Shown in pieces: positions 5,898 through 55,612 of a DNA stretch of 62,673 nucleotides; position 1 is the first letter of the stretch, and the number at the start of each line of letters is the position of its first letter. The DNA is from a virus. Its lineage: Duplodnaviria; Caudoviricetes. Under the pieces are notes generated by a model. It had not been told where the DNA came from. It saw only the letters and a list, made by a program, of their open reading frames with translations, and made no database searches. Made by a program: the position numbers and the translations under genes. The DNA lies in the IMG/VR virus record IMGVR_UViG_3300010397_000009, positions 1 through 62,673 of that record, one strand, 5' to 3'.

Positions 5898-6005
5898 GTT
5901 AGACTCAGAATAGACTGTGTCTCTTAGAGTCTAACCGAGGATTCATACAACCCCAATAGAGCTACACGGGCTAGTGGAACACCAAGGTTAGACTCTAAGA
6001 GAGAC
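5898..6005 (+). repeat. Dispersed AGAC-box/attC-like element, copy 1
   Basis: GTTAGAC(5898)-TAGAC(5911)-GTCT(5919)-GTCTAAC(5929)-N51-GTTAGAC(5987)-GAGAC(6001). Confidence 0.9.
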
Positions 6006-6016
6006 TAGGAGGAAGA

Positions 6017-6220
6017 ATGTCAACGCTTTGGTATAAGGTGAACGGCGGACTAACCCGTCAATTCCAAACAGACCTTGCACCAGAAGACGGCTACTTCGAT
6101 CTGGTCATGGAAGTAGTGAAGGACGCGACCGAGCCACTCCAGATCGACATCTGGTTTAGTTCGAATACTTCTCTTACACCAGATCGTCGACACGAGCACG
6201 GCGGTACTGTCCAAGCATAA
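6017..6220 (+). CDS. Hypothetical protein
   Basis: AGGAGG RBS immediately after element copy 1. Confidence 0.6.
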   Translation: MSTLWYKVNGGLTRQFQTDLAPEDGYFDLVMEVVKDATEPLQIDIWFSSNTSLTPDRRHEHGGTVQA

Positions 6221-6280
6221 ACAGCGGCCCTGTGGAATTCTGTAACAGTCAGGGGCCCGGCATGATCAGAGGGAGATCAA

Positions 6281-6721
6281 ATGCCACTCGCAACAGGAGC
6301 AGGTGACAACCAGAAACGGTGCGATCTAGTTTCGTGCCCAGGGGGATATGTCGTTCTTCGTCGTATGACGTGGGGCGAGAAGATGCACCGCAAGTCGTTC
6401 ATGTCGAAGGTGAAGATCGGTCAGGAAGCTGCCAGCGGTAATCGCGCAGAGCGTCGTAGTGGTGCAGCGCAGGCTTTCAGTGCCGAGCTCGACATGATGA
6501 ACGAGCAGGTGTCCGCATACGAGTTCAGCGTGTCGATCCTCGACCACAACCTCGAGTACAAGGTCGGTACGAACGACGACGGTACTGATCAGCTTGCAAA
6601 GCTGGACTTCAAGAACCCGGCTCACCTCAAGATGCTCGACGGTACAATCGGTGAAGAGATCGACGATCTCATCACTAATCTGAACGACTTCGAGAATGAT
6701 CCTGACACGGGAAAATCATAG
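6281..6721 (+). CDS. Tail assembly chaperone (short form)
   Basis: Between tube and tape measure; ends in slippery G GGA AAA at 6709-6715. Confidence 0.85.
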   Translation: MPLATGAGDNQKRCDLVSCPGGYVVLRRMTWGEKMHRKSFMSKVKIGQEAASGNRAERRSGAAQAFSAELDMMNEQVSAYEFSVSILDHNLEYKVGTNDDGTDQLAKLDFKNPAHLKMLDGTIGEEIDDLITNLNDFENDPDTGKS

Positions 6722-6942
6722 CGTCGCTCGCTCGTGTCATCGTCAGCCGGATTAAAGAACCTAAAGACGAATACGACGAAGCGGCGTTCGAGATAGTGGG
6801 CGTATTCAGAATGTGTCAAGCACTTAAGACGCAGCCCGTTTCGGGTGGAGTACTTGAACAGGACAGTCTGTTTATGCACTACCTCGGATACATTCTCGAG
6901 TACGACGCAGCAAGGGCTGAATTGGATCAAAAGCAAAAGTGA
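6281..6942 (+). CDS. Tail assembly chaperone, -1 frameshifted long form
   Basis: -1 frame after GGGAAAA is open to TGA 6940-6942, encoding MCQALKTQPVSGGVLEQDS, a typical gpGT-like C-terminus. Confidence 0.85.
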
Positions 6943-6951
6943 GGTGGGATC

Positions 6952-9690
6952 GTGGGTATCACGGCGCGCGACCTCTTCTTCGTCCTGAAGGTTCGGGACG
7001 AAGCTTCTAGTGCGCTCAACAGTGTTACCCGCGATCTGTTTCGTATTGGCGCCGCGGCCGCTGCAGAAGATAAGAGGGCAGAGGCATCGCGGCTTCGTGA
7101 GCTTGCAGGACAGTCTCGACTTTCCGCAGCCGCACAACGCGAACTGGCCGAGCGACAGAAGCTGAATGGTGCCACTAAGCAGCAGATCGCGGCCACTCTT
7201 GCAGCTGCTCGTGCACACGAAGATGATGCCAAGCAAACATTTGCAGAGGCAACAAGTCTTGATCGTGAAGCAGCTTCACTAGAACGTTCGGCACGTAGTC
7301 ACCAGCGTGTAGCCAAGGCTATGTCCGATGCTGGTAAGGCTGCTACGATCGCCGGTATCGCAATGGCAGGCGCAGGCGCACTAGGAGTAGTTGCGCTGTT
7401 GTCGACTGCTAAGGCTGCCGAGGAATACGGTCGACAGGTTGCTCTGACGCAGACTCAGATCGATGGCTTCAGTGCTAGTCAGGCACAGCTAGCCAAGATC
7501 GGAATTGACACAGCTAATAGTATCGCAGCGCCCTTCGAACAGATGCAGGAAACTCTGTACGACATCTTCTCGTCGACAGATGCTAACCTTGCACAAGGTA
7601 CTGTTCTGCTTAAGGCGTTCAGCAAGGCTGCGGTTGCTGGTCAGGTCGCCATTCGTGATGCCGCTGACTCGACTATGGGAATCATGAACGCGTTCAAGAT
7701 TCCCTTCGAAGATGTCAACAACGTTCTAGACGTTCAGTTCCAGTTGGTCCGTAAGGGTGTTGGTACCTACGCACAGTTCTCGAGTGTGATCGGTCGAGCC
7801 GTTCCCTCCGCTGTGCGCTATGGTGCTAGCCTTCAGGACCTTGCCGGTTCTCTCGCGTTCTTGACCCGTAATGGTCTCAGCCCTGCAATGGCTGCTGCTT
7901 CCGTCGCACGTGCTTTTGATGCCTTGGATAACCCCAAGGCCATCAACAACATGAAGGAACTGGGCATCAATGTCTACGACACAACGGGCAAACTCCGACC
8001 CTTCACGGACGTTCTTGGTGATCTGCAAAAGAAGATTCTAGCACTGCCTCCGAAGGACCGACTTCAGGCTCTGACAGATGTCTTCAAGGGTGCTGGCGGC
8101 ACAATCCAGGCACGACGCTTCCTGGACCAGATCCTCATTGGTAAGAATGCGCCTGCGCAGCTGAAGGCCCTTAAGGGCTTCATTGATGATATGAAGAACT
8201 CCACTGGGCAGTTTGGCGCGGCCTACGATAAGATGTCCAAGACTGTCGCGGCGCAGAGTCAGTTGCTGCACAACCGGTGGGAGACGCTTAAGGTAACTCT
8301 GGGCGTTATCTTCCTACCGATTGCAGTTAAGGTCATCGGTTGGATCAGTAAGCTCTTCATGTGGTTCGAGAAGTTGTCGCCGACTACTCAAAAGTGGATT
8401 GGCTACATTCTGCTCGCCGCAGCTGCACTATCCACGGTTATAGGTTTTGCCGTTGTGCTCGTTGGTGGGTTCCTAACATTGGCTGGAGCTGCTGCGGCCC
8501 TGGGCATTGGCTTTACAGAGATCGCTGTTGCTGTTGGTGCCATCGTAGCAGCTATCGCTGGCGTTGTTCTGGGTATCATTTACTTTGCTAAGCACAGTGA
8601 TCAGCTTAAGGCGATCTGGGCTGTAATAAAGAAGGACGCTATAAGTCTTCGGGACACACTGATTCAGGTGTGGCAGAAGATTACGGATACGTACAACACC
8701 TACCTCAAGCCCGCACTTGAAGACTTCTGGCAGTTCCTCCAGAACAAGGTCATGCCTGTTATCATGCAGGTCGCTGGCCAAGCAATTACGCTTTGGAACA
8801 CCAAGATCAAGGAAGCGCTCCGAGTCATCGGTGACTTCATTGATAAGGGCCTTCAGGTTCTGGCAGACGTTATCACTGGCGTCATCAAGCCTATCTTCGC
8901 AGACATCGCAAAGTGGATTAAAGAGCACGGCGATACGATTCACAAGGTCATCACGGTCATTGGTCAGATCATTAAGTGGGTCATGATCATCTTCGGCGCG
9001 TTGATTGTACTGATCATCGGTGGCGTTATCGCAGCGTTCGTTGCATTCATTGCAATCGTGGATGGACTGCTTCACGTCATCGACTTCTTGGTTCATGCAG
9101 TTAAGCTCGCCTGGAGTTGGCTGAAGGAACTAGGCAGTGCAATCGCTACAGCGGCGAAGGCGCTTTGGAATTGGCTGATGAAGGCCGATGATGCCATGAT
9201 CAAGTTCGGTCAAGCCATCCCAGGTAAGATCACTGGCTTCTTCAAAGGCGCGGGTACTTGGTTGTACAACATCGGCAAGGATATTATCAATGGTCTGATT
9301 GATGGCTTTAAGTCCAAGATGTCGGACCTCGGTAACTTCCTCGGCGGCGTTGGCAGCTTCATCAAGAACCACAAGGGCCCGAAGTCGAAGGACCTTGTCA
9401 TGTTGAAGCCCCACGGTGGCTGGATTATGTCTGGTCTGATCAGAGGTATCAAGGAGTCGATTCCGAAGCTAAAGGGCGCTGTGGACTCTGTGACAAGGGT
9501 GATTAACCCGTTTGCCAGCGGCGTCAGTTCTGCCCACCCTGCATACGCAGGTACGACTTACAAGCCCACGCCGCCTCCATCAGAGTGGCAAGGTAAGACG
9601 ATCAACAATCACATCACAGTCAATACGCAGGAAGTCAACCCACGTAAGCAAGCAGCTGAACTGGGTTGGGAGCTTGCGAACAAGATGTAA
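6952..9690 (+). CDS. Tape measure protein
   Basis: 912 aa, Ala-rich helical, TP901-type core, hydrophobic and Trp-periodic segments. Confidence 0.95.
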   Translation: MGITARDLFFVLKVRDEASSALNSVTRDLFRIGAAAAAEDKRAEASRLRELAGQSRLSAAAQRELAERQKLNGATKQQIAATLAAARAHEDDAKQTFAEATSLDREAASLERSARSHQRVAKAMSDAGKAATIAGIAMAGAGALGVVALLSTAKAAEEYGRQVALTQTQIDGFSASQAQLAKIGIDTANSIAAPFEQMQETLYDIFSSTDANLAQGTVLLKAFSKAAVAGQVAIRDAADSTMGIMNAFKIPFEDVNNVLDVQFQLVRKGVGTYAQFSSVIGRAVPSAVRYGASLQDLAGSLAFLTRNGLSPAMAAASVARAFDALDNPKAINNMKELGINVYDTTGKLRPFTDVLGDLQKKILALPPKDRLQALTDVFKGAGGTIQARRFLDQILIGKNAPAQLKALKGFIDDMKNSTGQFGAAYDKMSKTVAAQSQLLHNRWETLKVTLGVIFLPIAVKVIGWISKLFMWFEKLSPTTQKWIGYILLAAAALSTVIGFAVVLVGGFLTLAGAAAALGIGFTEIAVAVGAIVAAIAGVVLGIIYFAKHSDQLKAIWAVIKKDAISLRDTLIQVWQKITDTYNTYLKPALEDFWQFLQNKVMPVIMQVAGQAITLWNTKIKEALRVIGDFIDKGLQVLADVITGVIKPIFADIAKWIKEHGDTIHKVITVIGQIIKWVMIIFGALIVLIIGGVIAAFVAFIAIVDGLLHVIDFLVHAVKLAWSWLKELGSAIATAAKALWNWLMKADDAMIKFGQAIPGKITGFFKGAGTWLYNIGKDIINGLIDGFKSKMSDLGNFLGGVGSFIKNHKGPKSKDLVMLKPHGGWIMSGLIRGIKESIPKLKGAVDSVTRVINPFASGVSSAHPAYAGTTYKPTPPPSEWQGKTINNHITVNTQEVNPRKQAAELGWELANKM

Positions 9691-10563: not shown

Positions 10564-10564
10564 C

Positions 10565-11590
10565 ATGACTGTCGTTGCGCCTGCTGGGTTCTTCCAGAAC
10601 CTAACAACGCACACTGCCGAAACAGACCGGAGTGTGCCTAACGTACTAACGGTGAACCCGATCGCTGCGAGCTCATTGAAGTCGCAGGGCGGTGTAGCTA
10701 TGACGCTCGGTGGTGGCTTGAAGGTTACGCAGTCAGGCGCACCAGCAATGTCCGTTGACGTTGCACTTGGTACATGTTTGGTGCCAGGTACAGAAGGCGC
10801 TAAGCAGGGACAGTACACGGTTGTGAACGATGCGACCGTCACACTCACAGTCACTGCTGCGCATGCAACGTTGCCTCGCATCGACCTTGTAACTATGACG
10901 ATTCAGGATGCACAGTATAGCGGCGCAGCTAATCAGGCACTGCTCGTTGTAACTGCTGGCACTCCTGCTGCATCACCTGTTGCACCTACTGCTCCTGCGA
11001 ATAGCTTGATCCTTGCACAAATCGCAGTTGGTGCTGCTGTGTCGTCGATCGTTAACGCCAACATCACTGACCGTCGTACCCCGATTACAGCATCGGGCGG
11101 TCTTCAGGTTGTGTCGAGTGCAAACCGTCCTACGAATGGTTTGTATGAGGGTGAATCACTTTATGTGACCGACCGTGACTGGTATGAAACCTACGACGGC
11201 ACTGCATGGAAGGTTCGGGGCACTGCAGTTGTTGCCAACTTCGCAGCACTGTCGAACATTACGAGTCCGTATGTTGGTCAGGTCGTAAACGATGCTGCAG
11301 GCAACGTCTGGTGGTGGACAGGCTCCATTTGGGCACCGAAGCTTTTGAGTGGTACTGCTTCGCTGTCGTTCACTTCCCTGAACTCGTTTAGTCAGAACGT
11401 TTCATTCGCGCAGGCATTCGCTGGCACACCAAACATCATGACCAATATTCACTCTGGAGCCGGCGCTACTGCCCAATGGGGTAGTCGTGCCATCAACGGT
11501 AGCACTACCCAGTTTGCGATCTTTGTTTTCGTCGGTTCGGGCACTTCTACATGGGCTGGTGTAACGGTCCAGTGGGTTGCAACACTGTAA
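10565..11590 (+). CDS. Minor tail protein
   Basis: LPRIDLV, GTPAASPVAP, ITDRR motifs typical of actinophage minor tail proteins. Confidence 0.8.
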   Translation: MTVVAPAGFFQNLTTHTAETDRSVPNVLTVNPIAASSLKSQGGVAMTLGGGLKVTQSGAPAMSVDVALGTCLVPGTEGAKQGQYTVVNDATVTLTVTAAHATLPRIDLVTMTIQDAQYSGAANQALLVVTAGTPAASPVAPTAPANSLILAQIAVGAAVSSIVNANITDRRTPITASGGLQVVSSANRPTNGLYEGESLYVTDRDWYETYDGTAWKVRGTAVVANFAALSNITSPYVGQVVNDAAGNVWWWTGSIWAPKLLSGTASLSFTSLNSFSQNVSFAQAFAGTPNIMTNIHSGAGATAQWGSRAINGSTTQFAIFVFVGSGTSTWAGVTVQWVATL

Positions 11591-12706: not shown

Positions 12707-13734
12707 TGGGAGCGCAGCGGTACAATGGCGACGTTCCTGACCTCCTCGATCAGATCAAACAATTAAGAAAACGTATCGAAGCACTTGAACGTGGCCCTCA
12801 AGCAGCGTTCACTTCTGTGTCACAAGGTGCAATCAAGGTTTCCGATGGGGCCTCACTTATCATTGGTAGTAGTGTCACTGCCTCTGAAACGACGCCACAG
12901 GTGCCGATAGCAATTCTGACGTACTATGCAGGATTTGATATCCCGATCAAATCCATTACAAAGCTCTTTCCCCAAGATGGTGGTTATCATTACGCTGTCG
13001 TGGGCATGTTCGATCCCACCACGGAGTTCTACGCCGAAGGTTGGGTTAGCGCAAATGGTGTAGTTAACGAGTTCGTAAACCATTTGAGTGCCTTTGACGG
13101 AACGTCTGGTCAAGTTAACTATGGTACAGGACCGACTCCGATCGAGTCCCGGTTCCTTGGCGACGCATCCTTCCAGACTGGTGTATCAATTGAGGCAGGG
13201 TGCGTCTACCATATAGATTCGGGCGCACTGTATGACATTGGTGGCGTCTCTCAGGGTCGCGGCTTTGTTGCTCAAACCGTCTTCACCTCCAACATAGTTA
13301 CGGGCGCCATCAGCGGTACAGAGTACGCAGGCTATGTACTAGGTGAAATAACATTCCTAAATGGTCATGCTTATCGACTTGTAGTTTCTTCAGGTAAGAT
13401 GCGTTCTGCAACTGCACAGCAGCCAGCGATTAATCTTCGAACCTATACTCCTGGTTCACCACCTACGCCAGGGAACGCTTACGTTGGTGGTACAATACTC
13501 AATCAAGGTCCTCGAATGGCTCTCTCATCTACTGGCGTAGATCTATGCTTTGAACCCATAATTACATTCGTGAATAGTAGTGGTTCGGATGTTGTTTCAG
13601 GACTAACTATCACAGTTTCGCCCAACGCTGCACAAACTGTTCAACTCAGTGCCGGCGCCGGTGCCCTTGCAGTTGTTGTTGATATCATTGATATTGGTGC
13701 TGCTTCGGACTGGACCGGCGTACAGAGTTTGTAG
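12706..13734 (+). CDS. Minor tail protein / possible receptor-binding protein
   Basis: N-terminal coiled coil DLLDQIKQLRKRIEALER, then beta-rich region; lower GC. Confidence 0.7.
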   Translation: MGAQRYNGDVPDLLDQIKQLRKRIEALERGPQAAFTSVSQGAIKVSDGASLIIGSSVTASETTPQVPIAILTYYAGFDIPIKSITKLFPQDGGYHYAVVGMFDPTTEFYAEGWVSANGVVNEFVNHLSAFDGTSGQVNYGTGPTPIESRFLGDASFQTGVSIEAGCVYHIDSGALYDIGGVSQGRGFVAQTVFTSNIVTGAISGTEYAGYVLGEITFLNGHAYRLVVSSGKMRSATAQQPAINLRTYTPGSPPTPGNAYVGGTILNQGPRMALSSTGVDLCFEPIITFVNSSGSDVVSGLTITVSPNAAQTVQLSAGAGALAVVVDIIDIGAASDWTGVQSL

Positions 13735-16874: not shown

Positions 16875-16911
16875 TCGCCGTGTGGTTCTCTTTGGTCGTC
16901 AGGGTGCGTGT

Positions 16912-17020
16912 GTCTATCTTAAAGTCTAACACGCTTGTCCCGCAGCTCTACCTGCTTATATAGGCTATGCGAGTCAAACGCGTTAGACTTTAAGAGACTC
17001 GGTCTAATTACTAGTCTAAC
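16912..17020 (-). repeat. Dispersed AGAC-box/attC-like element, copy 2
   Basis: + strand: GTCTA(16912)-GTCTAAC(16924)-N51-GTTAGAC(16982)-GAGAC(16994)-GTCTA(17002)-GTCTAAC(17014). Confidence 0.9.
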
Positions 17021-17034: not shown

Positions 17035-17334
17035 TTAGCTTTGAAGCTCTTGGATCATTGCGTCTATCTCGGCACGTTGTGCTATCAGCTTTGCAAGTCG
17101 TGCACTAGCTGACTTCGTCTTCTTGGGCTCGACTACGATGTTGCTCGGATCCAAGTTAGCTCGATTGCCATCCTTGAAGCGGACGGTTTCCTTATCGGAA
17201 TCGATTGCTCGTCCGATCATTGCTTCCGCAACTAGGTGATGCGTTAGGCGCCAGCCGGTCTCAGTGCGGGTGTGACTGTAGCCATTCGCATTGATCATCG
17301 TGTCACCGAGTTGCGCTTGTTGTCCTCGGGGCAT
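17035..17334 (-). CDS. HNH_3-like protein with C-terminal coiled coil (first His apparently lost)
   Basis: THHLVAE..IGR...VRFKDGNRANLDPSNI. Confidence 0.7.
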   Translation of the reverse strand: MPRGQQAQLGDTMINANGYSHTRTETGWRLTHHLVAEAMIGRAIDSDKETVRFKDGNRANLDPSNIVVEPKKTKSASARLAKLIAQRAEIDAMIQELQS

Positions 17335-19706
17335 TACAGATCTCCATATGTCTTGCCGTAGGAGAGGTCTACGGCGAACGGAACGTAATCGGTAAACCTT
17401 CGACCTTCTTCAAGCATTGACTCCTGCAGGAGTGTTGACACAGTATCTCGATACCGTTCGGGACACTCCACGACCAGGGCGTCATGAACTGTGAGTCTGA
17501 TCCATCCCATACCACGGAGCATTGGACGCAGACGGATAAGTGCAGAGAGGCAAATATCGGATGCAGTAGACTGCGGCAGATAGGACAATGCCTCGTTAAG
17601 GACGTCCTTGCGATTCTCATCAGTGATGAGGTAGAAACGACGCTTGCGCCCGAAGGGGGTGACAAGGTCTTCACCGGACAGTACCCTTCTCTTAGTCTGT
17701 TCCTGCCACTTAGCTGTAGCAGGAATTAGATCCATGAAGTCACGAAGGCGCTTCTCGGCTTCACGCACTGTCATGTTATACTCCAGTGCGATGGAGAATG
17801 CTTCACGTCCATAGCTCAGACCGTAGAAGAATGCCTTCGTCCGAACACGATCTTCCTTCGTCCAGTTACCTGTGCCGTAGAGCGAATCAGACAACTCGTT
17901 GAACATGTCGATGTCCGGGTCGGCAAAGATTTCACGAAGGTAATCGTCCTGTGCAAGTGTTGCAATGACTCGGCCTTCCGCTTGCTTGTAGTCGGCCTGG
18001 ATGAAAATGTTGTCCTCATGCGTGACGCGGAACTGCTTCTTGATCATCTTGTCACGAACGATGTTCTGGAGGTTAGGGTTGCGACTTGCAAGTCGTCCAG
18101 AGGTTGTTCCATGTAGCAAGTACGTAGTGTGAATGCGTCGACGATAAACTCGTTTGCGCAGACCCTTTACATACGTACCGTATAGCTTTGTTTCCTTGCG
18201 ACTACGCAGTAGTGCCTGAATGAACTTGGCTGCAGTGCTTGCTGGGTTCAGGCGTTCGAGGATTCGCTTCAGTGTGTCTTCGTTGGTCGTACTAACTCGA
18301 ATACCTTGGTCGTGCAGGAACTCTTTTACTTGCTTGGGTGAACGGGGGTTAAAGGTGGGAATCTTAGTGAGCTCTTGGACAAGAGAGTCGACCTCATCGA
18401 GCCTCGTGAGGTAATCAGTTTGTAGTGCATTGGAGTATGCAATATCAAAACCAATTCCGTTGAGTTCCAAGTACATGAGCTGGTTAGATGCTGCGACAAG
18501 GAAGTCGTGGACGCGTCGAACTCCGTCTCGATCCAGCCGCTCTTGGAACAACTCAAACAAGTCCCAAGTGCAACTAACGTCATACGCGTTGTACTTGTAG
18601 AGTATCGGCCGAGGAATAAGGGCGTAATTTCCTCCGCGTGGCACAAATCGTTGGATCTCATCGTCGTACTTCGGCGCACCAAGAAGTTCGACGGCCAAGA
18701 CTTTGAGACCATGAAGCTGTCCTCCTACTCTTTCATCCAATGCATAATGTGCTAGCATTGTGTCAAAGAAGAGTTCAAGTCCCCCCAGGTGAGGGAAGAG
18801 TCCTGCTAGGTCAAACTTGCCATTGTGTGCGATGATCTTTGTGCGTTGCAAGAACCGCTTGAATACTTCCCAAACAAGACCTTTCTTATCGTCGTCGCTG
18901 ACTATCTGATCAACGCCGTCGACTTCGATTGTCTTCTTTGGGTTCAGTGCTTCTTCGCCTAGGATGTAGGCGAAGCCTTTCTCCATCTGTAGTCCCACGC
19001 AAAGCATTGCGTAGTTGTTCGGATGGTCGAAGCTGATATCCTTCTCGACACCAACCTCGATGTCCACGACTGTGTGTTCAGCTTGCAACGTACTTAGCCA
19101 GAGGATTGCCTCGTCGGCATCATCTATAACTCGATAACGTGGCGGCTTCCATCCTGAGCGATTAGAGTCGCGAAGTTTTCCGACATCGTTGAGGAGCGCG
19201 GGGAATGCGTCCGCATTTCTAAGACAGTAAGCTGGGTGCCATGACGCGACCACTCCTTCAATGCCTGCTTCGCGAACGTCTCCCAGGGCTGGCTTAGCGG
19301 GTCCAATGCGGAGGGTTGAAATCTTCCCTCCAGGATCAATGAGTACTTCTGTTGCAGTTGAACCAAGCGCAAGTGCAGTACTGGCGCCTGATTGCCGTAT
19401 CTCGTGAAGCAGGCGTCCTCGACAAGCAACTTGTGCCGCCTTAGGAGGAGACGAGTTACCCTCAGGACGACAGAGACAAGCATTGGTGAATCCAATCTCT
19501 GATGGTCGAAACTTGTGTGCCTTGAGTACATCCGTAAGCAACTTGCCCGAAGGCCCAACGAAGGGTTTCCCTCGTTGGGCATCCGCATATCCGGGCGCCT
19601 CTCCTACGACGATGACCTTCGGTGCAGGAGGGATGTTGCTTAGGACGTAGGCATTCCCGAACAGGGGACAAGCCTCGCAGTTCGCTTCTGGATGCCTACG
19701 CTCCAC
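17334..19706 (-). CDS. polA: DNA polymerase family A with N-terminal family-4 uracil-DNA glycosylase domain and 3'-5' exonuclease
   Basis: CxxC, VGEAPG, FVGPSG, HPAY (UDG4); DIE, HNGKFD, YNAYD (exo); GRLASRNPNLQNI, ADYKQAE, KAFFYGLSYG, TVHD (PolA). Confidence 0.95.
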   Translation of the reverse strand: MERRHPEANCEACPLFGNAYVLSNIPPAPKVIVVGEAPGYADAQRGKPFVGPSGKLLTDVLKAHKFRPSEIGFTNACLCRPEGNSSPPKAAQVACRGRLLHEIRQSGASTALALGSTATEVLIDPGGKISTLRIGPAKPALGDVREAGIEGVVASWHPAYCLRNADAFPALLNDVGKLRDSNRSGWKPPRYRVIDDADEAILWLSTLQAEHTVVDIEVGVEKDISFDHPNNYAMLCVGLQMEKGFAYILGEEALNPKKTIEVDGVDQIVSDDDKKGLVWEVFKRFLQRTKIIAHNGKFDLAGLFPHLGGLELFFDTMLAHYALDERVGGQLHGLKVLAVELLGAPKYDDEIQRFVPRGGNYALIPRPILYKYNAYDVSCTWDLFELFQERLDRDGVRRVHDFLVAASNQLMYLELNGIGFDIAYSNALQTDYLTRLDEVDSLVQELTKIPTFNPRSPKQVKEFLHDQGIRVSTTNEDTLKRILERLNPASTAAKFIQALLRSRKETKLYGTYVKGLRKRVYRRRIHTTYLLHGTTSGRLASRNPNLQNIVRDKMIKKQFRVTHEDNIFIQADYKQAEGRVIATLAQDDYLREIFADPDIDMFNELSDSLYGTGNWTKEDRVRTKAFFYGLSYGREAFSIALEYNMTVREAEKRLRDFMDLIPATAKWQEQTKRRVLSGEDLVTPFGRKRRFYLITDENRKDVLNEALSYLPQSTASDICLSALIRLRPMLRGMGWIRLTVHDALVVECPERYRDTVSTLLQESMLEEGRRFTDYVPFAVDLSYGKTYGDL

Positions 19707-23657: not shown

Positions 23658-24504
23658 CAGGAGCCTTTGCGGTCTTCCAGAACTCGGTGTCCATGTAGTT
23701 GGTCCCATCATAACGAGGCGCGTCGAATCGGCCAAGTGCCTCGTGAATTGCTTCGAGACGCTCGACACAGGTTCCGCAGGTACCGCAGTGGTACTCACCA
23801 CCCTTGTAGCAAGACCATGTCTCGTGGAACGGAACACGCAACTCAAGTGCACGATAAGCGATGTCAGCCTTGGTCTTGTTCAAGAATGGTGCGTAGATAG
23901 TTCCGATCGCTTCTTCTTCTGGTGCGAAGCCCAACGACTCGGCAGCTTGTGCGTACTCCTGCTCACGTCCTTGTGCAATGTGGAAACCACCACTGGTACG
24001 AAGTGTGGCAGCCTCCAGATCGTGGAAGCCTTCGTTTGCAGTGAGGATCGCTTGTTCCATCTGCGAGATGAACTTCGGGCGGCAGTCCGGGTAGATAAAG
24101 TGATCACCTGCGTGAACGCCAATACCGATCGTACGTGCCTTCTCATTGACTGCGACGCCTGCTGCGATGCTCATCATGATCATGTTCCGGTTAGGAACAA
24201 CAGTCGCCTTCATGTTCTCTTCAGCGTAGTGCCCGTCAGGAACTTCCATGTCAGAAGTGAGTGACGAGTTGCTGATCAGATTCGTGATGTTACTCAGGTC
24301 GATGATGTCGTGCGGCAGATCCATCTTGGACGCTGTAGACTGTGCGTAGTACAGTTCCTTCTTGTGCTTCTGTCCATAGTTGAACGAGATCATGTGCGGG
24401 GTCAGTCCCCGCGAGAGCATGTCGTACACAAGAACTGTACTGTCCAAGCCGCCTGACACAATGGCGACGCTGTCGCTTATGCGACCATCCCTATGCGAGT
24501 GCAT
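23644..24504 (-). CDS. queC: 7-cyano-7-deazaguanine synthase
   Basis: SGGLDS, FNYGQKH, VPNRN, YPDCRP, TWSCY, HCGTCGTCVER; no glutaminase domain; acidic insertion. Confidence 0.95.
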   Translation of the reverse strand: MHSHRDGRISDSVAIVSGGLDSTVLVYDMLSRGLTPHMISFNYGQKHKKELYYAQSTASKMDLPHDIIDLSNITNLISNSSLTSDMEVPDGHYAEENMKATVVPNRNMIMMSIAAGVAVNEKARTIGIGVHAGDHFIYPDCRPKFISQMEQAILTANEGFHDLEAATLRTSGGFHIAQGREQEYAQAAESLGFAPEEEAIGTIYAPFLNKTKADIAYRALELRVPFHETWSCYKGGEYHCGTCGTCVERLEAIHEALGRFDAPRYDGTNYMDTEFWKTAKAPDAGE

Positions 24505-26677
24505 TGTAAACCAAACCCTTTCCAACTGGTGTCTTTGTAATGAGTCCACGTTGCTCCAGAGTTACGAACACTGCCTCAGCTTCGCGCGCCGAGAGATGGT
24601 AGTTGCGCATCAGCAGTGAACGAGAAACACCTGGGTGCTTCCTGATGTGCGTTAGGATCGTATCGATCTGATGTTCCGCTGCGGACTGGCCGATGCCGTT
24701 CACCACATCGATAGCGTATTCCAACCAACCTTCTGCGTACTTGATCCCCAACAAGATGTCGTCTACGTCGATCTCGACTTCACCATCTGGGTCGCGTTGC
24801 TCACTTGCTGCAAGAAGGATCACTGCCTTCAACATTGACTTGGAAAGTCGGTCGTATAAAGGCGTCATCAGATCAGCCCTGTTACCTGCTAGGGCAAGCT
24901 TCTGTGTATCCTTCTCAAACTTGTTGTACCGTTTCCATGCTTCAGGTGTTAGATGCGCCTCCCATTTCGTCTGCATAGGTATCTTAGCACCCTGCGGAGT
25001 AACGACGATCGACATTTGGTTGTAGAAGTCGTGCATGTCGATGAGGTACTGTTTGAGTCGATCACGTTCTCTTGTATCAAGGTTAGTCGGGGGTCCAAGT
25101 GGTCGAACTTTTGCAAGGTCCGATTCAGCCGTGAGGAAAAGGAACCGAGGGATGAATCCAGAAGAGACGTGGTCAAGCTTAAGAAGTTGCTGCACTCGAG
25201 TCTTAATGCCTCCTGCAAACAGGATAAGGTTGGGGTCTCGCACTTCGATAGTTTCTTTGCGTAGCATTCGCTTTTGCAATTTGCCATCGTAGAGCTTGGT
25301 GAGGACCTCCGCCATACCCGCATAATAGTCCTTCTTGGTAATCTGCTCGATCAGACCACTGAACTCATCTCGTAGGAAGATCGATGGCTTGCCTGGACGT
25401 GTCGATAGTCCCTGCATCAAACCTTCGATCGATCCATCTGTTGCCATGATGCTATCGGAATCCACTTCAGCCAACAAGTCCATTGCAATATCCATCGCGG
25501 TTGATTTACGTGTCAACGTCGTATCGGCTAGGATCATGAACCAGATGTTAGGCTTAATGTTTCCGAACGATGTTGGGAGGAAAACGTTTCCACTTAGTAG
25601 TGCACTGAGAATGATGAATGCGCCGCCTTGATGATACTGTGTTGCTGCATCACCTAACGAACTTGCCCAGTCAATGTACTCTTCTACGAATGTACGCTTC
25701 TCTGTTACTCGTGCGCGCTCTTCATCTGTAAGAAGCTGTGTATCCTCCAGGGGAACAACGATCTGAACCTTTCTTACGTTTTCAAGATGCCTTCCATAAG
25801 CTCTGCAAACGTCCTGCCACACATGGTCGTTCCCTAGTCCATTACGTCTGAACTTGTTACAAGCTGCATCGCGAACAACTACGTATACGTCTTCCTTATC
25901 CATTCCTGCTTCGTAGCAATCCATCTCAAGTGCAAAGAGCACCTTTGACCAATCACCTATTGGCATCTTCTCGAACGCGGTCCAGGTACTTTCCTTCAGC
26001 TTGAGGCGGAAGACCTCCATAGCTTCTCTACCCGTACCGTATCGAGTCCTATCTGGCATCGGGATCTTTTCGTAGTCCGTAAGGCTAACCTCGGGGAATA
26101 CGGAAAGCTCTTCGACGGAGTATGCCAACCCCGGGGACCCCAACAGCTCAACCACCACACGCCCGGTTTCATTTGCAAGGTGTGTGTACTTGTGGTTCGT
26201 AGTCCCAGGGACGCGAAGCAACTGTGTCAGGTCCCAACCTGATCGGTCGGCGCCCTCGTCTGCGTAGTGATACGCAATTCGTTTGCTGATGTCCATCGCT
26301 GTGCGAGGGTCTGTTCCACCCTCTACCAACCAAAGGGCCTGATACCGACCAGGCGACGATTCTACTAACAGCGACGGTTGAATTTCTAGGTTGTCTGGAC
26401 TACATTCATCCAGGTCCGCCCACACCGAAGGACAGATTGCAACGTTGTCCTTCCTGATTTCTCTTGACTTGAATATCTGGGGGCAGTAGTACACATCCTG
26501 CTCGCTGTTCTGCAGGCCTTCCATGTAGCGGACGAAGTCCTCCATTTGCCGAGGTAGTTCGAACCACATGTGCGACATACTGTCCTTAGCATCTGTGTTA
26601 CGCTGCAGTCGAGCTACGACAACCCAACCTGCATTGTTTCCATATGCTAGGCGAAAAAAAGTGTTAAGTGATACCAT
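24491..26677 (-). CDS. DNA primase/helicase: RepB'-type primase domain + DUF3987-like ATPase
   Basis: VWADLD, VESSPGRYQALW, LLRVPGTTNHKY; RKSTA, GSIEGL, RDEFSG, SGFIPRF. Confidence 0.85.
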   Translation of the reverse strand: MVSLNTFFRLAYGNNAGWVVVARLQRNTDAKDSMSHMWFELPRQMEDFVRYMEGLQNSEQDVYYCPQIFKSREIRKDNVAICPSVWADLDECSPDNLEIQPSLLVESSPGRYQALWLVEGGTDPRTAMDISKRIAYHYADEGADRSGWDLTQLLRVPGTTNHKYTHLANETGRVVVELLGSPGLAYSVEELSVFPEVSLTDYEKIPMPDRTRYGTGREAMEVFRLKLKESTWTAFEKMPIGDWSKVLFALEMDCYEAGMDKEDVYVVVRDAACNKFRRNGLGNDHVWQDVCRAYGRHLENVRKVQIVVPLEDTQLLTDEERARVTEKRTFVEEYIDWASSLGDAATQYHQGGAFIILSALLSGNVFLPTSFGNIKPNIWFMILADTTLTRKSTAMDIAMDLLAEVDSDSIMATDGSIEGLMQGLSTRPGKPSIFLRDEFSGLIEQITKKDYYAGMAEVLTKLYDGKLQKRMLRKETIEVRDPNLILFAGGIKTRVQQLLKLDHVSSGFIPRFLFLTAESDLAKVRPLGPPTNLDTRERDRLKQYLIDMHDFYNQMSIVVTPQGAKIPMQTKWEAHLTPEAWKRYNKFEKDTQKLALAGNRADLMTPLYDRLSKSMLKAVILLAASEQRDPDGEVEIDVDDILLGIKYAEGWLEYAIDVVNGIGQSAAEHQIDTILTHIRKHPGVSRSLLMRNYHLSAREAEAVFVTLEQRGLITKTPVGKGLVYNALA

Positions 26678-29720: not shown

Positions 29721-29754
29721 TTCCCGTTATTCTATTATGGCGGCAATTACTTCT

Positions 29755-29816
29755 ATTATACTCTTAGCCACTTAGTAAGACAAGCTGGCAATTTTAGTTT
29801 CAGTTGGGTCAATTTT
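29755..29816 (-). promoter_or_regulatory. Sigma70/HrdB-type promoter with two upstream AAAATTGMC boxes
   Basis: TTGTCT-N17-TATAAT on - strand; boxes 21 bp apart. Confidence 0.75.
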
Positions 29817-29842: not shown

Positions 29843-29883
29843 GCGCGGGCCCTGTGGTTCCCTTAGGAAGACAGGGTCCGCGC
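29843..29883 (-). terminator. Stem-loop after the bldC-like gene
   Basis: GCGCGGGCCCTGT / ACAGGGTCCGCGC. Confidence 0.55.
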
Positions 29884-29888: not shown

Positions 29889-30110
29889 TCAAACCGTTTC
29901 GGGAGTGTCTGGTCCTAGAAGGGCGAAGACGTCCGACATGTAGAAGCGTCGGTGCCCACCTGGGGTCAGAATCGACTTAAGCTTACCTGCAGTCGCCCAC
30001 CGACTGACGGTCTTCGGGTCGACACGGAACAGTGCAGCCACTTCACCCGGTGTTAGTAGACGATCGGGTTGCATGAGTGCCACACGCTCACTTGCCGTAA
30101 GTGTGCTCAT
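29889..30110 (-). CDS. bldC: BldC-family MerR-like DNA-binding protein
   Basis: LLTPGEVAALFRVDPKTVSRWATAGKLKSILTPGGHRRF closely matches the Streptomyces BldC core as I recall it. Confidence 0.88.
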   Translation of the reverse strand: MSTLTASERVALMQPDRLLTPGEVAALFRVDPKTVSRWATAGKLKSILTPGGHRRFYMSDVFALLGPDTPETV

Positions 30111-37431: not shown

Positions 37432-37478
37432 GTCAGTTCCTTTGGCGGTGTGGAGTTTTGTGTTGTAAGGGGCTCGGT

Positions 37479-37587
37479 GTCTATCTTGAAGTCTAACCTC
37501 GCCGGTCAAGCGGGGCTTATAGCTTATGTAGCTTCGCTATTCCAACTGGTTAGACACCGGTTAGACCGAGTCTATTTTCAGTCTAAA
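37479..37587 (-). repeat. Dispersed AGAC-box/attC-like element, copy 3
   Basis: + strand: GTCTA(37479)-GTCTAAC(37491)-N51-GTTAGAC(37549)-TAGAC(37562)-GTCTA(37570)-GTCTAAA(37581). Confidence 0.9.
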
Positions 37588-37885
37588 CTACTTCTGCTAT
37601 TAGGAGATTCTCGTCCTTCGGGTACAGCATTTCCTTCGACGTCTTCGGACTTAGAACGATGAAAACTTCGTAGCCCATGGCATTGGCAAATCGCGTCAGA
37701 GTTGGCAGTTTGATCTGGCTACCACGTGCAATGCACTTTCGCCACTGCGATGCGATCGACCGCTCTGCGCCCATCTTGTGTGCAAGACGGAGATCAGTTA
37801 TGCCCTTCTGCGTCTTGATTAGATCGAGAATGTGAAACAGTGGTCGAGTGTCCTTAACTGGACCGATCGGAATGTCAATCGGCAT
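37583..37885 (-). CDS. XRE-family HTH protein
   Basis: KGITDLRLAHKMG...IKLPTLTRFANAMGYEV. Confidence 0.7.
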   Translation of the reverse strand: MPIDIPIGPVKDTRPLFHILDLIKTQKGITDLRLAHKMGAERSIASQWRKCIARGSQIKLPTLTRFANAMGYEVFIVLSPKTSKEMLYPKDENLLIAEVV

Positions 37886-38208
37886 CAGCGTCCCCTTACT
37901 TCTCGTCCCTCCAGGGATGCAACATGTGCTGCCTCTGCAGCTGCTCGCATTTGAGCTGCAAGTGCCATATCGGGCTTCGGCATCTGCCGTTGACGCGGTG
38001 CTTCTGGGTCGGGAATGGTGCCATCCGCGTTGACCTGAACCTCCCACGGCGTGTTGTTCCAACGGCACCGTGGGTTGCGACAGTAGAACTTGTGCAGCTT
38101 GGCTCCCTTGGAACCAGACTTGACGGCACGTGTTTCACGTTCGACATGTTCGCCGACCTGGTCGCATCGAGGACAGCGCTTTGCTTCCTCCCAAGTTCCT
38201 GCGGGCAT
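37885..38208 (-). CDS. Zinc-ribbon protein
   Basis: CPRC...CRNPRC. Confidence 0.65.
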   Translation of the reverse strand: MPAGTWEEAKRCPRCDQVGEHVERETRAVKSGSKGAKLHKFYCRNPRCRWNNTPWEVQVNADGTIPDPEAPRQRQMPKPDMALAAQMRAAAEAAHVASLEGREVRGR

Positions 38209-38681
38209 TACTTCGCCTCCTCGGCCATCAGGCTCTCCAAGAGCGCGGTCATTTGTTCCTCGAGCAGGTCTACACGCTTAGTGAGATCGTTTACCTGCTT
38301 TGTGTTCATTGCCGTCTTGCTAGTGGGCTCTCGCCCTGAACCAATCGCGTCCGCCTTCATGTACAGCTCTTCGGTCGGCTCAGTAATCAGTCGCCACTTG
38401 CTCTTCTTCGCGCCACCGCCTCGGGAGACCTGCTCAGCACATCCCATGTTCCGAAGCATCTTTGTTACTGTCGTGTAGTAAGGCGCAGCCATGCCAGCTT
38501 CTGAGAAGAGCGAGGTCAGGTAACCTTCGTAGATGGCATACCCGGTAGCCTCTGTTGAGGTACTACCATCCTTACCCAGGACGTTAATGACCTCCGGTGT
38601 TGAGTCACGCAGCATCTTCTGGTAGATCGTACTGCAGTGCTCGAACATCGCAGGTACAGGGCTATCTGTCGGGTCAGTCAT
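38208..38681 (-). CDS. Winged-helix-like protein with C-terminal coiled coil
   Basis: YYTTVTKMLRNMGCAEQVSRGGG..S.W.L pattern. Confidence 0.6.
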   Translation of the reverse strand: MTDPTDSPVPAMFEHCSTIYQKMLRDSTPEVINVLGKDGSTSTEATGYAIYEGYLTSLFSEAGMAAPYYTTVTKMLRNMGCAEQVSRGGGAKKSKWRLITEPTEELYMKADAIGSGREPTSKTAMNTKQVNDLTKRVDLLEEQMTALLESLMAEEAK

Positions 38682-38910
38682 TATGTGTCACCTCCGTTGC
38701 GTCAAACAATTCCTGGAAGAAGCGGTTCTTATCTCTTTGCCGGTGAACCATGCCCGCATTCTTCTCAAGATCGTCGACGGTGGACCAGTCTCGATTGTCC
38801 TCAAGTTGCTGCAGTGTAGTTGCACCTTCATTAAGTGCCTGGTCGGCCAGCTCGTTAAGGTATTCCTGTTCATCCGCCGTGAATACCTCATCAAGCCTAC
38901 CTGTCTTCAT
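38674..38910 (-). CDS. Hypothetical protein
   Basis: AAGGAG RBS right after promoter. Confidence 0.6.
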   Translation of the reverse strand: MKTGRLDEVFTADEQEYLNELADQALNEGATTLQQLEDNRDWSTVDDLEKNAGMVHRQRDKNRFFQELFDATEVTHND

Positions 38911-38924
38911 TTGTGTCTCCTTTT

Positions 38925-38965
38925 ATTATACTCTGCACCCCTCGTGTACATCACGGGGGCAATTT
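38925..38965 (-). promoter_or_regulatory. Promoter with poor -35 and abutting AAATTGCCC box
   Basis: AAATTGCCC-CC-GTGATG-N18-TATAAT on - strand. Confidence 0.6.
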
Positions 38966-52904: not shown

Positions 52905-52934
52905 ATTATAGAGTGTAACCTTCTGCCTACACAA
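52905..52934 (-). promoter_or_regulatory. Sigma70-type promoter
   Basis: TTGTGT-N18-TATAAT followed by GGAGGAGG RBS. Confidence 0.6.
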
Positions 52935-53278
52935 GCCGTCAGTTAGAAGTTAAAAGTTAGGACTAGTCGAAGCAAATGATTTGCCTTTTCAGGCGCCTTG
53001 GGAGGCGACTACTTGGAAAACCAAGAGAAAAATGATTCGCCTGATCCTAACTGTGAACTCGTAACTTACTATTAAAACTGATATGGATACTATATATTAT
53101 GTTATACGTGTATATACGTGTTTGTCAGGTCCTATCCGTATGTCCCTTGGGGGATTTAGAGGGATTTTCCGTATTGCCCACGTGAATTATACCGTGTGTA
53201 TAGCTGCCTTATTATAAGCTACCCCCTAGACTGGCTTTTATAGGTGACAAATAGACTTTTACAGTTGAAAGTAAGACA

Positions 53279-53323
53279 AATAGGGGCGAATCCCGGGTTA
53301 TTCGCCCGAAACTCGCCCCTATT
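53279..53323 (-). terminator. Stem-loop after the lipoprotein gene
   Basis: AATAGGGGCGA / TCGCCCCTATT. Confidence 0.6.
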
Positions 53324-53354
53324 GGGCCCTATCCGGACCGGACTAAATCACCGG

Positions 53355-53825
53355 TCAGTTCTCGTGGCGGAAGCCGTCTCCGCACACGAGTTCGAACCGG
53401 TCGCCTTCGCCCCGTCCGTAGCAGAGGGACGTGAGGTCGATCTGGCCGAAGTCAACGCCGGTACCCTTGAGCTGATTGCGGTTGGTGATCGGAACCCAAC
53501 CCTTGTTTTCGTAGCAGAAGAACCGGTACTCGTCGTCGGGTCCGGCGTTCGTCAAGTCCAGGAACAGGCACCCGTCGACGTCGGACTCCTTCTGGCACGT
53601 GTTCCGCTGAATCGACGGCGTCCAGCCTTCGAGACACGGGACGTGCGTACGCGTCGGAAGCTTCAGGTCGGGCTTCGACGTGTTCGGGTACTTGTTCCCA
53701 GCCGGCGTCCGGGTAGCCCCGGCACTGGGCGGTGTGGTGTTCTTGTCGGCCAGGGGCCGGCACGCCGAAAGCGCCGCCACGGTCAACAGACAGACTGCCG
53801 CCTTGGCAACGGTAGTGCGTCGCAT
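53355..53825 (-). CDS. Cys-rich lipoprotein
   Basis: MRR + hydrophobic stretch + LSAC lipobox; GGAGG RBS. Confidence 0.75.
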   Translation of the reverse strand: MRRTTVAKAAVCLLTVAALSACRPLADKNTTPPSAGATRTPAGNKYPNTSKPDLKLPTRTHVPCLEGWTPSIQRNTCQKESDVDGCLFLDLTNAGPDDEYRFFCYENKGWVPITNRNQLKGTGVDFGQIDLTSLCYGRGEGDRFELVCGDGFRHEN

Positions 53826-54118
53826 AGTACCTCCAGGGGTGAGCGACGGATAGGACCAACGGACGGTCCGTTAGCCCTACAGGTCGTTCACTCGCGGTCT
53901 TTGCGGTTGCCGACGTAAACGCGGCTGACTAGGAAGTAGACTAGTAGCAGGACGGCCAGCAAGCCGGCCGAGATGTCGGGCATTGTTCGTCTCCTTACGT
54001 AGTTCCGGAAGCGGCCACCGGGAGGCACTTGTCGTGCCGCCAGGGCAGACTTTTGGCGGGACGCGAACTATGTCCGCAGGGCAGCCTGAAGCCCGTAACC
54101 TCCGGGGAGGTTACCGTA

Positions 54119-54355
54119 CTAGCAGTTGCAGGAACCGTTCACGGAGTAGCGGGTGTAGCAGTCGGGGCAGGTCCGGCGGTCGGTGTAACCTCCGTCGATG
54201 CTCCGGTCGGCCTTCTCGTCCAGGTCACCCTGCGGTGCGAACCGGCCCTTCTGGAGGGCGTGGACCGCGTGAATGCGGGGCCCGGACGATCCGGCGAGCG
54301 GGTAGGCCGTCGTACTCTTCGCCTTGATGGCGGAGATGTAGGAACGTTTCGCCAT
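54119..54355 (-). CDS. Small Zn-binding protein
   Basis: CPDC...GSCNC C-terminus. Confidence 0.6.
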   Translation of the reverse strand: MAKRSYISAIKAKSTTAYPLAGSSGPRIHAVHALQKGRFAPQGDLDEKADRSIDGGYTDRRTCPDCYTRYSVNGSCNC

Positions 54356-54456
54356 TTTCATGATCCTTTCCAGGGGGAAACGATTTTCCGGATCTTGCGT
54401 GTGAGTGGAGTTGTGGGCCGGCCCCCGTCCGGTGTTACCGGATCTTGCTGGGGAGG

Positions 54457-54759
54457 TTACTTGATCTTGCGGGAAGCGATGACGCGTGCGACGAAGGCGG
54501 CAACCTCAGCCTCAGTGAACGTCTTGGCGCCCGGGACGCCGTTGATCCGACCCGACTTGCGGTAGCCGTACATCGCCTGCGGCGCGACCGGCTTGACGTC
54601 GTACTTGGTCTCGTCGAGCTGCGCCAGCGCGTCGTTGATGACGTGGTGGATCGCGTAGGCCGTCCAGATGCCGTCTGCCCCCGCCTCACGGCGGCGAGCG
54701 ACTGGGAGCGGCTGAGCGGTCTCGGAGGCCTTCAGGATCTTGTTGATGTCAATAGCCAT
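54457..54759 (-). CDS. First early gene, HTH-like protein
   Basis: TAYAIHHVIN...VAPQAMYGYRKSGRI; strong GC3 bias. Confidence 0.7.
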   Translation of the reverse strand: MAIDINKILKASETAQPLPVARRREAGADGIWTAYAIHHVINDALAQLDETKYDVKPVAPQAMYGYRKSGRINGVPGAKTFTEAEVAAFVARVIASRKIK

Positions 54760-54831
54760 GATCTTTTCCAATCTACGAATGAGTTAGTAAGTACCTATGC
54801 GTAGACGGAGGCCGACTCATAACCCCACTCA

Positions 54832-54854
54832 CACTGTTTAGTTTTCAAGGAACG
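54832..54854 (-). promoter_or_regulatory. rrn-type boxA-like antitermination signal
   Basis: CGTTCCTTGAAAACTAAACAGTG on - strand resembles the actinobacterial rRNA leader GTTCCTTGAGAACTCAACAG (from recall). Confidence 0.6.
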
Positions 54855-54856
54855 AG

Positions 54857-54934
54857 TTATAAATGAATTAATAAATTAATTAAGAATTAATTAATTAATA
54901 TTTAATTTATTAATTTATTTATAACTATAATATA
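54857..54934. other. Extremely AT-rich tract between the divergent arms
   Basis: About 78 bp with only three G/C bases; many AATT/TTAA. Confidence 0.85.
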
Positions 54935-55056
54935 GCAGCAATTTCAAGATCCTTAAAGGGTCGCTCCGGTCTAAACAAAGGTCGTAGAACCATGCATGTA
55001 TAACATTGTTAGCCAGTAAGAGAAGTGAAGCGATGCGGGAGAAGACAGTAGCGTAG

Positions 55057-55096
55057 AAACTGCCCGGTTGACTTCAGCTAGTGTACCAGTTATAAT
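55057..55096 (+). promoter_or_regulatory. Promoter for the packaging operon with upstream box
   Basis: AAACTGCCC-GG-TTGACT-N17-TATAAT. Confidence 0.8.
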
Positions 55097-55123
55097 CAAG
55101 GTAGGTAGTCCAAGGAGGACATT

Positions 55124-55486
55124 ATGCCCAGTACGCCAGACTGGATCCCAGAGGAAGAGCTTGCGGCTCTTGCAGCGGGACCGGCTCCGAGTACCATGAG
55201 CGGGAATACCGCGGAACAGCTCGCCATGCAAATCTTCCGCGATCACCTGCCACTGGCTGCTCAGGTCATCTGTGACATCGCTGTCAACAGCGATAACGAG
55301 CGTAACCAGATGCAGGCCTCGAAGTACATCGTTGAGCGCGTCATGGGCCGGACTCCAGATGCACGAGTCGACAACGGCGCTACCGACCCGCTCGCGAACA
55401 TCTTCACGGACGTGCTGCGAGAGCCTACGGCAGACGAGCGCGCACAAGGGTCGCGAGTCACGCGGCTCAGCACAAGCAAAGAGTAG
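55124..55486 (+). CDS. Probable terminase small subunit
   Basis: AAQVICDIA..SDNERNQMQASKYIVERVMG helical motif; first gene of the rightward arm. Confidence 0.6.
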   Translation: MPSTPDWIPEEELAALAAGPAPSTMSGNTAEQLAMQIFRDHLPLAAQVICDIAVNSDNERNQMQASKYIVERVMGRTPDARVDNGATDPLANIFTDVLREPTADERAQGSRVTRLSTSKE

Positions 55487-55503
55487 TAGAAGCTCTTAGG
55501 TTA

Positions 55504-55612
55504 GTTAGACTCAGAAGAGACCGAGTCTAACTAGGGTCTAACTAGAGTTCATACTACCCCCAATAGCTCTATAGGGGTAGCTGGGCTAGCGAGGTTAGAC
55601 TTGAAGATAGAC
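55504..55612 (+). repeat. Dispersed AGAC-box/attC-like element, copy 5
   Basis: GTTAGAC(55504)-GAGAC(55517)-GTCTA(55525)-GTCTAAC(55536)-N51-GTTAGAC(55594)-TAGAC(55608). Confidence 0.9.

Follow-up and report, generated by a model that had tools for sequence, protein, structure and literature searches.

We examine a dispersed repeat element in the complete 62,673-bp genome of an uncultured soil phage (Caudoviricetes; IMG/VR record IMGVR_UViG_3300010397_000009). The window, by which we mean this whole stretch of DNA, has a 123-bp terminal repeat and a GC content of 0.54, and carries five copies of the element. A six-box expression taken from a preliminary description of the letters alone finds exactly these five, each where it had been reported, and has no match elsewhere. 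In the rows below, arrowheads give the orientation of successive boxes.

5898-6005, plus strand, copy 1, boxes > > < <, a 51-nt core, then > >
16912-17020, minus strand, copy 2, the same 4+2 layout, after the PolA and HNH genes (17035-19706)
37479-37587, minus strand, copy 3, the same 4+2 layout
46159-46266, plus strand, copy 4, the 4+2 layout on the plus strand, flanked by the minus-strand open reading frames (ORFs) 46320-46631 and 45795-46127
55504-55612, plus strand, copy 5, between ORF 55124-55486 (plus strand) and the packaging/head genes (ATG at 55656)

The genes around these copies form two arms. The plus-strand arm starts at about 55.06 kb, passes over the ends and stops at 15.4 kb; it appears to hold the portal gene and a 912-aa tape-measure gene, labels that follow from position and size. 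Minus-strand genes run from about 54.8 kb down to 15.5 kb and encode, besides the two proteins below, a PD-(D/E)XK nuclease, an SNF2 helicase and two DUF397 genes. The last, in a family linked to actinomycetes, make an actinomycete the probable host.

17334-19706, minus strand, fusion of an N-terminal uracil-DNA-glycosylase-superfamily domain (UDG; E 2.8e-23) with PolA, a fusion retained across the aligned relatives
24491-26677, minus strand, RepB_primase-DUF3987 protein

Neighbouring elements are 9-21 kb apart, and all five are intergenic, as had been noted. Copy 1, at the head of the tail-gene block, lies between a gene ending at 5893 and a ribosome-binding site (RBS) with its ATG at 6017; copy 3 lies downstream of a winged-helix gene (38208-38681) and ORF 37583-38068, ahead of the DUF397/SNF2 replication block. 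It also holds that four copies (1, 2, 3 and 5) start 0-17 nt past the stop codon of a co-directional gene, which for copy 5 is 55124-55486; the same four end 11-60 nt ahead of the next start. The single copy said to oppose transcription is copy 4, which, oriented by its 4+2 box pattern, faces minus-strand genes. The boxes themselves are far from a chance collection. The pattern GTCTAAC-N(45-57)-GTTAGAC has five matches, every spacer being 51 nt, against a mean of 0.00 in 100 dinucleotide shuffles; TAGAC-N3-GTCT occurs six times (0.41 expected), each time inside one of the five elements; and 16 of the 18 copies of GTTAGAC in the genome (6.1 expected) fall within them. The 40 nt upstream of the elements are enriched in AGCT (6 against 1.0 expected) and CTAG (3 against 0.4), and copies 2 and 4 have ACTAGCAGCT in common, 3-4 nt ahead of the first box. 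This upstream stretch may represent one more box, in degenerate form, or else a buffer rich in stops.

The arrangement of the boxes becomes clear when the relatives are considered together. We denote this phage G000 and its relatives G001-G025, with L numbers for further loci, and use 32 elements from nine of the genomes, curated by eye, with all distances taken between the centres of the 7-mers and ten distances of 17-30 bp, due to chance or degenerate boxes, left out of both tallies that follow. Within an array, neighbouring boxes are 10-12 bp apart in 83 of 94 cases, so that the one-turn spacing first seen in this genome extends to its relatives. Across the core, the distance between the inner boxes is 46-47 bp (9 elements) or 56-58 bp (13), with single cases of 40 and 44 bp and two of 68 bp in which an inner box is degenerate. 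The two main classes are thus one helical turn apart, near 4.5 and 5.5 turns at about 10.4 bp per turn. The preliminary description had stressed a spacer of exactly 51 nt; this is true of all five copies here and does not carry over to the relatives, the closest complete one having spacers of 49, 49, 50 and 51 nt; in G004 they are 49-51 nt long. The value of 51 nt seen here is one of the steps that a quantised spacing allows.

While the sequence of the boxes and their spacing are conserved, their orientation and number are not. The arrays hold 3-7 boxes of mixed orientation, and the orientation differs even at orthologous sites: against the > > < < core > > of G000 we find < < < < core > > and > > core > > in G004, < < > > core < < in G010 and G011, and > > core < < in many relatives. 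A de novo search for phased 6-mers in G000, G004, G010 and G017 also ranks the boxes first. Since the orientation is free and the phasing fixed, the pattern points to protein domains on duplex DNA and away from strand pairing. Of the readings first put forward, phased sites for a phage DNA-binding protein is the one that fits, the helical spacing being strict where the box orientation is free, and we consider the element very probably a phased array for protein binding and not a site that acts as a folded strand.

The same element is widespread among relatives. A PolA profile search of IMG/VR gives 515 of them, from which 80 PolA loci were kept, and box clusters were counted over 81 loci. At least three exact TTAGAC/GTCTAA words are clustered in 29 of the 81, in every case 0.3-2.0 kb downstream of PolA, where copy 2 also lies. 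With a looser detector, 40 of the 81 have an element there, giving 34 unique cores, of which about eight are regarded as doubtful picks; several of the 81 loci end too close to PolA for the region to be covered. Where exact clusters are missing, weaker boxes in the same arrangement are often present. The tandem-box pattern occurs in 17 of 22 further related genomes, with 56 matches against 9 for a reversed control pattern.

The sites also keep their places. G004 (72.8 kb, 65% PolA identity) has syntenic counterparts for all five, among them the three given below, and G002, G005, G010, G011, G016, G017 and G019 keep two to four sites in synteny. In all eight relatives compared, the homologous winged-helix gene is followed 0.4-1.3 kb downstream by a cluster, at the site of copy 3. 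The counterpart of copy 4 in G005 (tandem boxes from 4342) points with its genes.

G004 58714-58818, counterpart of copy 1
G004 71087-71159, counterpart of copy 5
G004 10780-10875, counterpart of copy 4, inverted as copy 4 is

Scanning the collection with GTCTAAC-N49-53-GTTAGAC proved too unspecific, since it returned single chance matches, one of them in G004. Several variants of the sites may be recorded here. One subgroup has TTTGTCAAGC twice, as direct repeats at a distance of one turn, immediately upstream of the box array (G005 at about 4310-4340 and L147 at about 3960-3985, also L146, L152 and G001). L169 (about 13205-13275) and L171 (about 12975-13070) have GATAAC/GATAGC in place of the weaker KAGAC and keep TTAGAC and the spacing. 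The larger and more distant G023-G025 have no TTAGAC arrays; they have instead dozens of phased GGACA/TGTCC words concentrated in one early region, often as TGTCCG-N7-9-CGGACA just upstream of the RBS of a small gene, which looks like a separate operator system.

G023 74.5-80 kb, G024 5-13 kb and G025 19-22.6 kb, GGACA/TGTCC region; listed with L237-L252

We turn to the reading which the outer boxes had first suggested, that of an attC-like site for folded single-strand recombination or gene capture, or else an ssi-type priming hairpin. An attC site folds into an imperfect stem in which the L''/L' boxes carry extrahelical bases. The likeness to it consists in the outer 7-mers GTCTAAC...GTTAGAC, which fit the consensus RYYYAAC...GTTRRRY in all five copies of this one genome, and in a length of about 65-108 bp, within the attC range; in addition, small genes beside the elements (ORFs at 6017, 16683 and 37168) have no homologue in the relatives searched. 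The 65-nt stretches that include both 7-mers fold at z scores of -0.9 to -4.1 against shuffles which destroy the 7-bp inverted boxes. The 51-nt spacers alone, described before as hairpins, fold no better than shuffles on either strand (z -1.43 to +0.24), and 26 cores from relatives have mean fold z scores of -0.10 and -0.33. Their description as imperfect palindromes finds weak backing at most: ungapped dyad symmetry gives shuffle fractions of 0.06, 0.12, 0.28, 0.57 and 0.06, and the in-register symmetry of the relatives' cores has a mean z of 0.71 and exceeds 2 in 4 of the 26. A covariation check of the five copies (RNAalifold) gives 14 pairs, of which seven are the invariant boxes and seven are poor, with an unfavourable covariation term of +1.2. 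The elements have no conserved single-strand structure.

The inverted pair seems not to be kept either. In the 34 unique cores of the relatives, the doubtful picks included, the inner boxes point inward (> <) in 22, outward (< >) in six and in the same direction in six, and with the outward arrangement this rare, R''/R' pairing is probably not a conserved feature. A six-frame search covering the whole phage genome, for which a host integrase could still act in trans, finds no match to PF00589 (the control is positive in 14 of 14 genomes), in agreement with the earlier remark that neither IntI nor another tyrosine recombinase is recognisable, and no serine recombinase was found in a six-frame search of the same extent. 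The positions in relatives also speak against recombination, as the sites stay syntenic and do not mark rearrangements. The elements thus differ from integron attC in having no conserved stem (extrahelical bases were not modelled separately), no L boxes, no integrase, no cassette array and, it seems, no conserved inverted arrangement. We regard the attC-like reading, and with it the priming hairpin, which fails on the same folding results, as almost certainly wrong. A miniature or other transposon with terminal inverted repeats is rejected as well, on the synteny across relatives and on an inverted arrangement that seems not to be conserved. A false lead is thereby removed; to find such integron-like sites in a phage would have been a much greater surprise.

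The cores between the arrays are directional, and their direction is tied to that of the genes. Read in gene direction, 15 of 30 cores have A[GT]GA[AC] at core position 4-5; read in reverse, none of the 30 does. AGGA[ACT][TCG] occurs 18 times forward against twice in reverse in 30 cores, and at position 3 the core of copy 1 reads AGGATT. A central TAG(A/C)(G/T)CTA-N1-3-GGGCT, in one orientation, is common to copies 1, 4 and 5 and to their counterparts in G004. By this stretch copy 4 and G004 10780 do run against their genes, unlike the G005 counterpart. For copy 4, judging by this arrangement, an antisense or convergent role is possible. Between copy 4 and the end of ORF 46320-46631 lies a hairpin which may mark the end of the leftward early block; a terminator scan does not call it, as it has no T run.

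46287-46313, perfect 10-bp hairpin

A further word, CCACA[CG][CGA]G[CGT], is found 12-40 nt past the gene-proximal end of 15 of the 32 curated elements. In 13 of the 15 it is on the PolA-coding strand; five of the six structural-arm elements are among these, and there the word lies antisense to the gene that follows. Over the whole genome it has no strand bias (in G000, ten on the plus and nine on the minus strand).

55627-55635 (by copy 5), 16877-16885 (by copy 2) and 37445-37453 (by copy 3), minus strand, CCACACGGC word
6227-6235 and 29849-29857, minus strand, further sites of CCACA[CG][CGA]G[CGT]

Elsewhere the genome has promoters of a conventional kind, which score 9.7-15.8 with a sigma-70 weight matrix of approximate values. 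The word AAAYTGMCM stands 2 nt upstream of each -35 hexamer, with 14 matches against 3.5 expected. From the presence of these promoters it follows that host polymerase reads the phage, in which no sigma factor was found (no match to PF04542 or PF08281).

55068-55096, plus strand, promoter TTGACT-17-TATAAT (55057-55096 with the upstream word), 11 of 12 consensus positions, which drives ORF 55124-55486
61503-61545, plus strand, promoter ahead of the gene at 61577
40600-40665, minus strand, promoter ahead of the candidate regulator gene 39946-40587
38915-38965, minus strand, promoter GTGATG-18-TATAAT with a AAATTGCCC word upstream, score 9.7, which precedes ORF 38674-38910 and the winged-helix gene
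29745-29815, minus strand, promoter ahead of the nuclease block
55124-55486, plus strand, real gene, 62% identity over 117 aa to G004 (E 1e-44)

The longer antisense frame 54971-55447 (minus strand) reaches only 34% in the same comparison with G004 and is, on this protein comparison, a shadow of the gene 55124-55486. As the plus-strand frame is the real one, the rightward arm begins at about 55.06 kb.

Which protein could read the boxes? The proteins of unknown function kept in all eight relatives compared include two candidates.

38208-38681, minus strand, leading candidate binder, winged-helix protein, structure model with pLDDT 81.4
39946-40587, minus strand, second candidate, found in 20 of 24 relatives

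In the model of the first, a winged helix is joined through a linker of low confidence (residues 116-119) to a 35-residue C-terminal helix (122-156); the protein also has an invariant PYYT...GC.EQ..RGGG..S.W block. Its gene, which in relatives is always just upstream of the copy-3 site, is present in 23 of 24 relatives, 19 of which match at E <= 1e-37. It is very divergent, at E 3e-13 to 4e-9, in G014 and G023-G025, four of the five genomes without the tandem box. Yet G017, at a PolA identity of 45%, bears boxes, and these four reach 48-51%; nor is their PolA more distant than that of G016, which bears boxes too. A search for homologous proteins with the winged-helix protein returned three matches only. 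The N-terminus of the second candidate is acidic and its middle part folded; there is also a Lys/Ala-rich helix, and the C-terminal EAE is invariant. Its fold has no structural match; profile searches of the PDB with both candidates gave nothing below E 0.5. An HTH_17/MerR-like protein (29889-30110, E 1.2e-10) is less likely as the binder, being found in only three of the eight relatives compared.

Alternatively, a host regulator could read the boxes, for example a factor of the GntR/HutC type, in whose operators GT..AC and GTCTAGAC-like cores occur. In favour of this, the box shows a GT-N3-AC frame whichever way it is read and is kept across phages with PolA identities of 45-68% and GC contents of 0.47-0.60. 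The presence of the box, however, tracks the two phage proteins, and we consider a host reader very unlikely.

The nature of the leading candidate brings in another possibility, namely that the elements are iteron-type origins, at which a winged-helix initiator would bind the arrays, open the core and hand over to the RepB-type primase-helicase. The phased repeats around a core do resemble iterons, the phage has the RepB_primase-DUF3987 protein, and the weak nearest structural neighbours of the winged-helix protein (Atlas matches at TM 0.40-0.45) include plasmid Rep/RepA_N initiators. The one absolute strand of the CCACASGGC word at 13 of 15 elements would suit replication too. An origin of this kind is nevertheless improbable. 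The spacers have a GC content of 0.51-0.53 against 0.54 for the genome and so offer no AT-rich region for unwinding, the cores are tied to gene direction and form no hairpin, and origins would not normally stand at operon boundaries in three to five syntenic copies per genome.

We arrive at a model in which the element is a duplex-DNA site for a sequence-specific phage protein at the boundary of a gene module. Single protein domains would bind the 7-bp boxes (GTTAGAC or the weaker KAGAC form), which, one turn apart, would form an array on each side of the core, the larger of up to four boxes and the smaller of up to two, and inner boxes 4.5 or 5.5 turns apart would place the two arrays on opposite faces of the helix. 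Free box orientation together with fixed spacing, an unusual combination, predicts a binder whose DNA-binding domains are loosely tethered to an oligomer; the winged helix, linker and long helix of 38208-38681, a gene with its own near-consensus promoter, would match such a build. The bound complex would then switch on a weak non-canonical start in the core, or gate RNA polymerase there, for the tail, packaging/head, replication and post-PolA modules. The anatomy of the sites, their phasing, synteny and directionality and the missing hairpin are observed; protein binding, the identity of the binder and the choice between activation and blocking are what we infer here. That the element controls transcription starts at module boundaries through the phage winged-helix protein has, in our estimate, an even chance of being right.

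Several results weigh against this control of transcription starts. With the same matrix as above, 30 cores score 2.07 forward and 2.17 in reverse against 2.45 for shuffles and thus show no excess, and a consensus promoter scan finds nothing inside copies 1, 4 and 5; scoring like shuffles and far below the promoters of the genome, the cores are not ordinary promoters. The strict direction-linked pattern is absent from the four G000 cores tested, and copy 4 and its G004 counterpart face their flanking genes. The near-consensus promoters also serve some replication and head genes, and the elements are therefore not the sole drivers of those modules. On the side of the protein, the fold matches of 38208-38681 are weak (MarR regulators and plasmid Rep initiators, best E 4.8e-3, TM 0.3-0.45), its link to the boxes rests on one or two clades, and 39946-40587 tracks the boxes equally well, with the same pattern across relatives, which leaves the binder not pinned to one gene.

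Some of the same observations would suit a protein roadblock or insulator, in which the bound arrays stop or gate polymerase arriving from the upstream gene and no start lies in the core, much as at the stoperators of mycobacteriophage L5. The cores have no promoter of the sigma-70 type, the copies are dispersed through the genome, and four of them begin within 17 nt of the point where a co-directional gene ends; for copy 5, a short way upstream, there is the gene with the 11/12 consensus promoter. A simple block, however, needs neither a core of fixed length nor arrays on both sides, and it leaves unexplained the quantisation at 4.5 and 5.5 turns and the direction-linked core word; moreover, the recombinase searches of the phage found no integrase, and no other lysogeny function was found. 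We consider the roadblock unlikely on balance.

A bolder version of the model may be stated alongside that of controlled transcription starts. Here an oligomeric winged-helix/coiled-coil protein of a kind not described before would wrap about 110 bp, its loosely tethered domains clamping the 4+2 boxes from opposite faces of the DNA, and host RNA polymerase would start there with neither -35 nor -10; or the complex would be origin and promoter at once, as some T4 origins double as a promoter. The strand-fixed CCACASGGC word and the RepB-type primase would be its partners. We hold this improbable. If true, phage gene modules would be switched in a new way that needs no promoter, common to hundreds of uncultured soil phages.

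The surroundings offer few known landmarks. A megablast of 20 kb against the phage collection found no cultured relative, and the best tblastn identity of PolA to cultured phages is about 32%. Pfam and PHROG scans of about 60 ORFs give almost nothing for the early region. Rfam at the gathering threshold gives only three tRNA-type matches in the whole window and no known RNA family at the elements. One tRNA-like gene (39707-39796, minus strand; 46.9 bits with the Rfam tRNA model), beside tRNA-Met and tRNA-Ala, is reported by ARAGORN without a normal anticodon ('ac'). Full-text literature searches returned nothing on the element. For a large family of soil phages represented only in metagenomes, the elements provide a testable regulatory grammar, consisting of a 7-bp box, one-turn phasing, cores of 4.5 or 5.5 turns and candidate binder genes.

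It remains to place the elements among known systems. Origin iterons of plasmids and phages, bound by winged-helix initiators such as those of the RepA_N family, share with them the short helically phased repeats and, given the weak fold matches of the candidate, perhaps the type of binding protein; they differ from the elements, which occur three to five times per genome at operon boundaries, have no AT-rich region and have cores linked to gene direction. The stoperators of L5 and cluster A mycobacteriophages and the C1 operators of P1 are single 13-17-bp sites of fixed orientation for a lysogeny repressor. The likeness to these lies in many short asymmetric sites for one phage protein, set in the short intergenic gaps of both arms and linked to transcription. 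The elements here are instead phased arrays of free orientation around a fixed core in a genome where no lysogeny genes were found, and the single asymmetric site with a fixed orientation relative to transcription, typical of L5, is not what we see.

P2/P4 (Ogr/Delta) and Mu (C, Mor) have activator-dependent late promoters. In these, each late operon follows one of four or five similar, dispersed regions, which have a poor or absent -35 and a conserved upstream site for a small phage DNA-binding protein, in likeness to the elements. The elements differ in having up to six 7-bp boxes of free orientation on both sides of the core, half-integer turns across it and no recognisable -10. On Mu C, see PMC4461284. 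With a short box that is repeated, intergenic, conserved and helically phased, the elements are a variant of the dispersed operator and activator sites known in phages, neither a new kind of system nor a relative of integrons.

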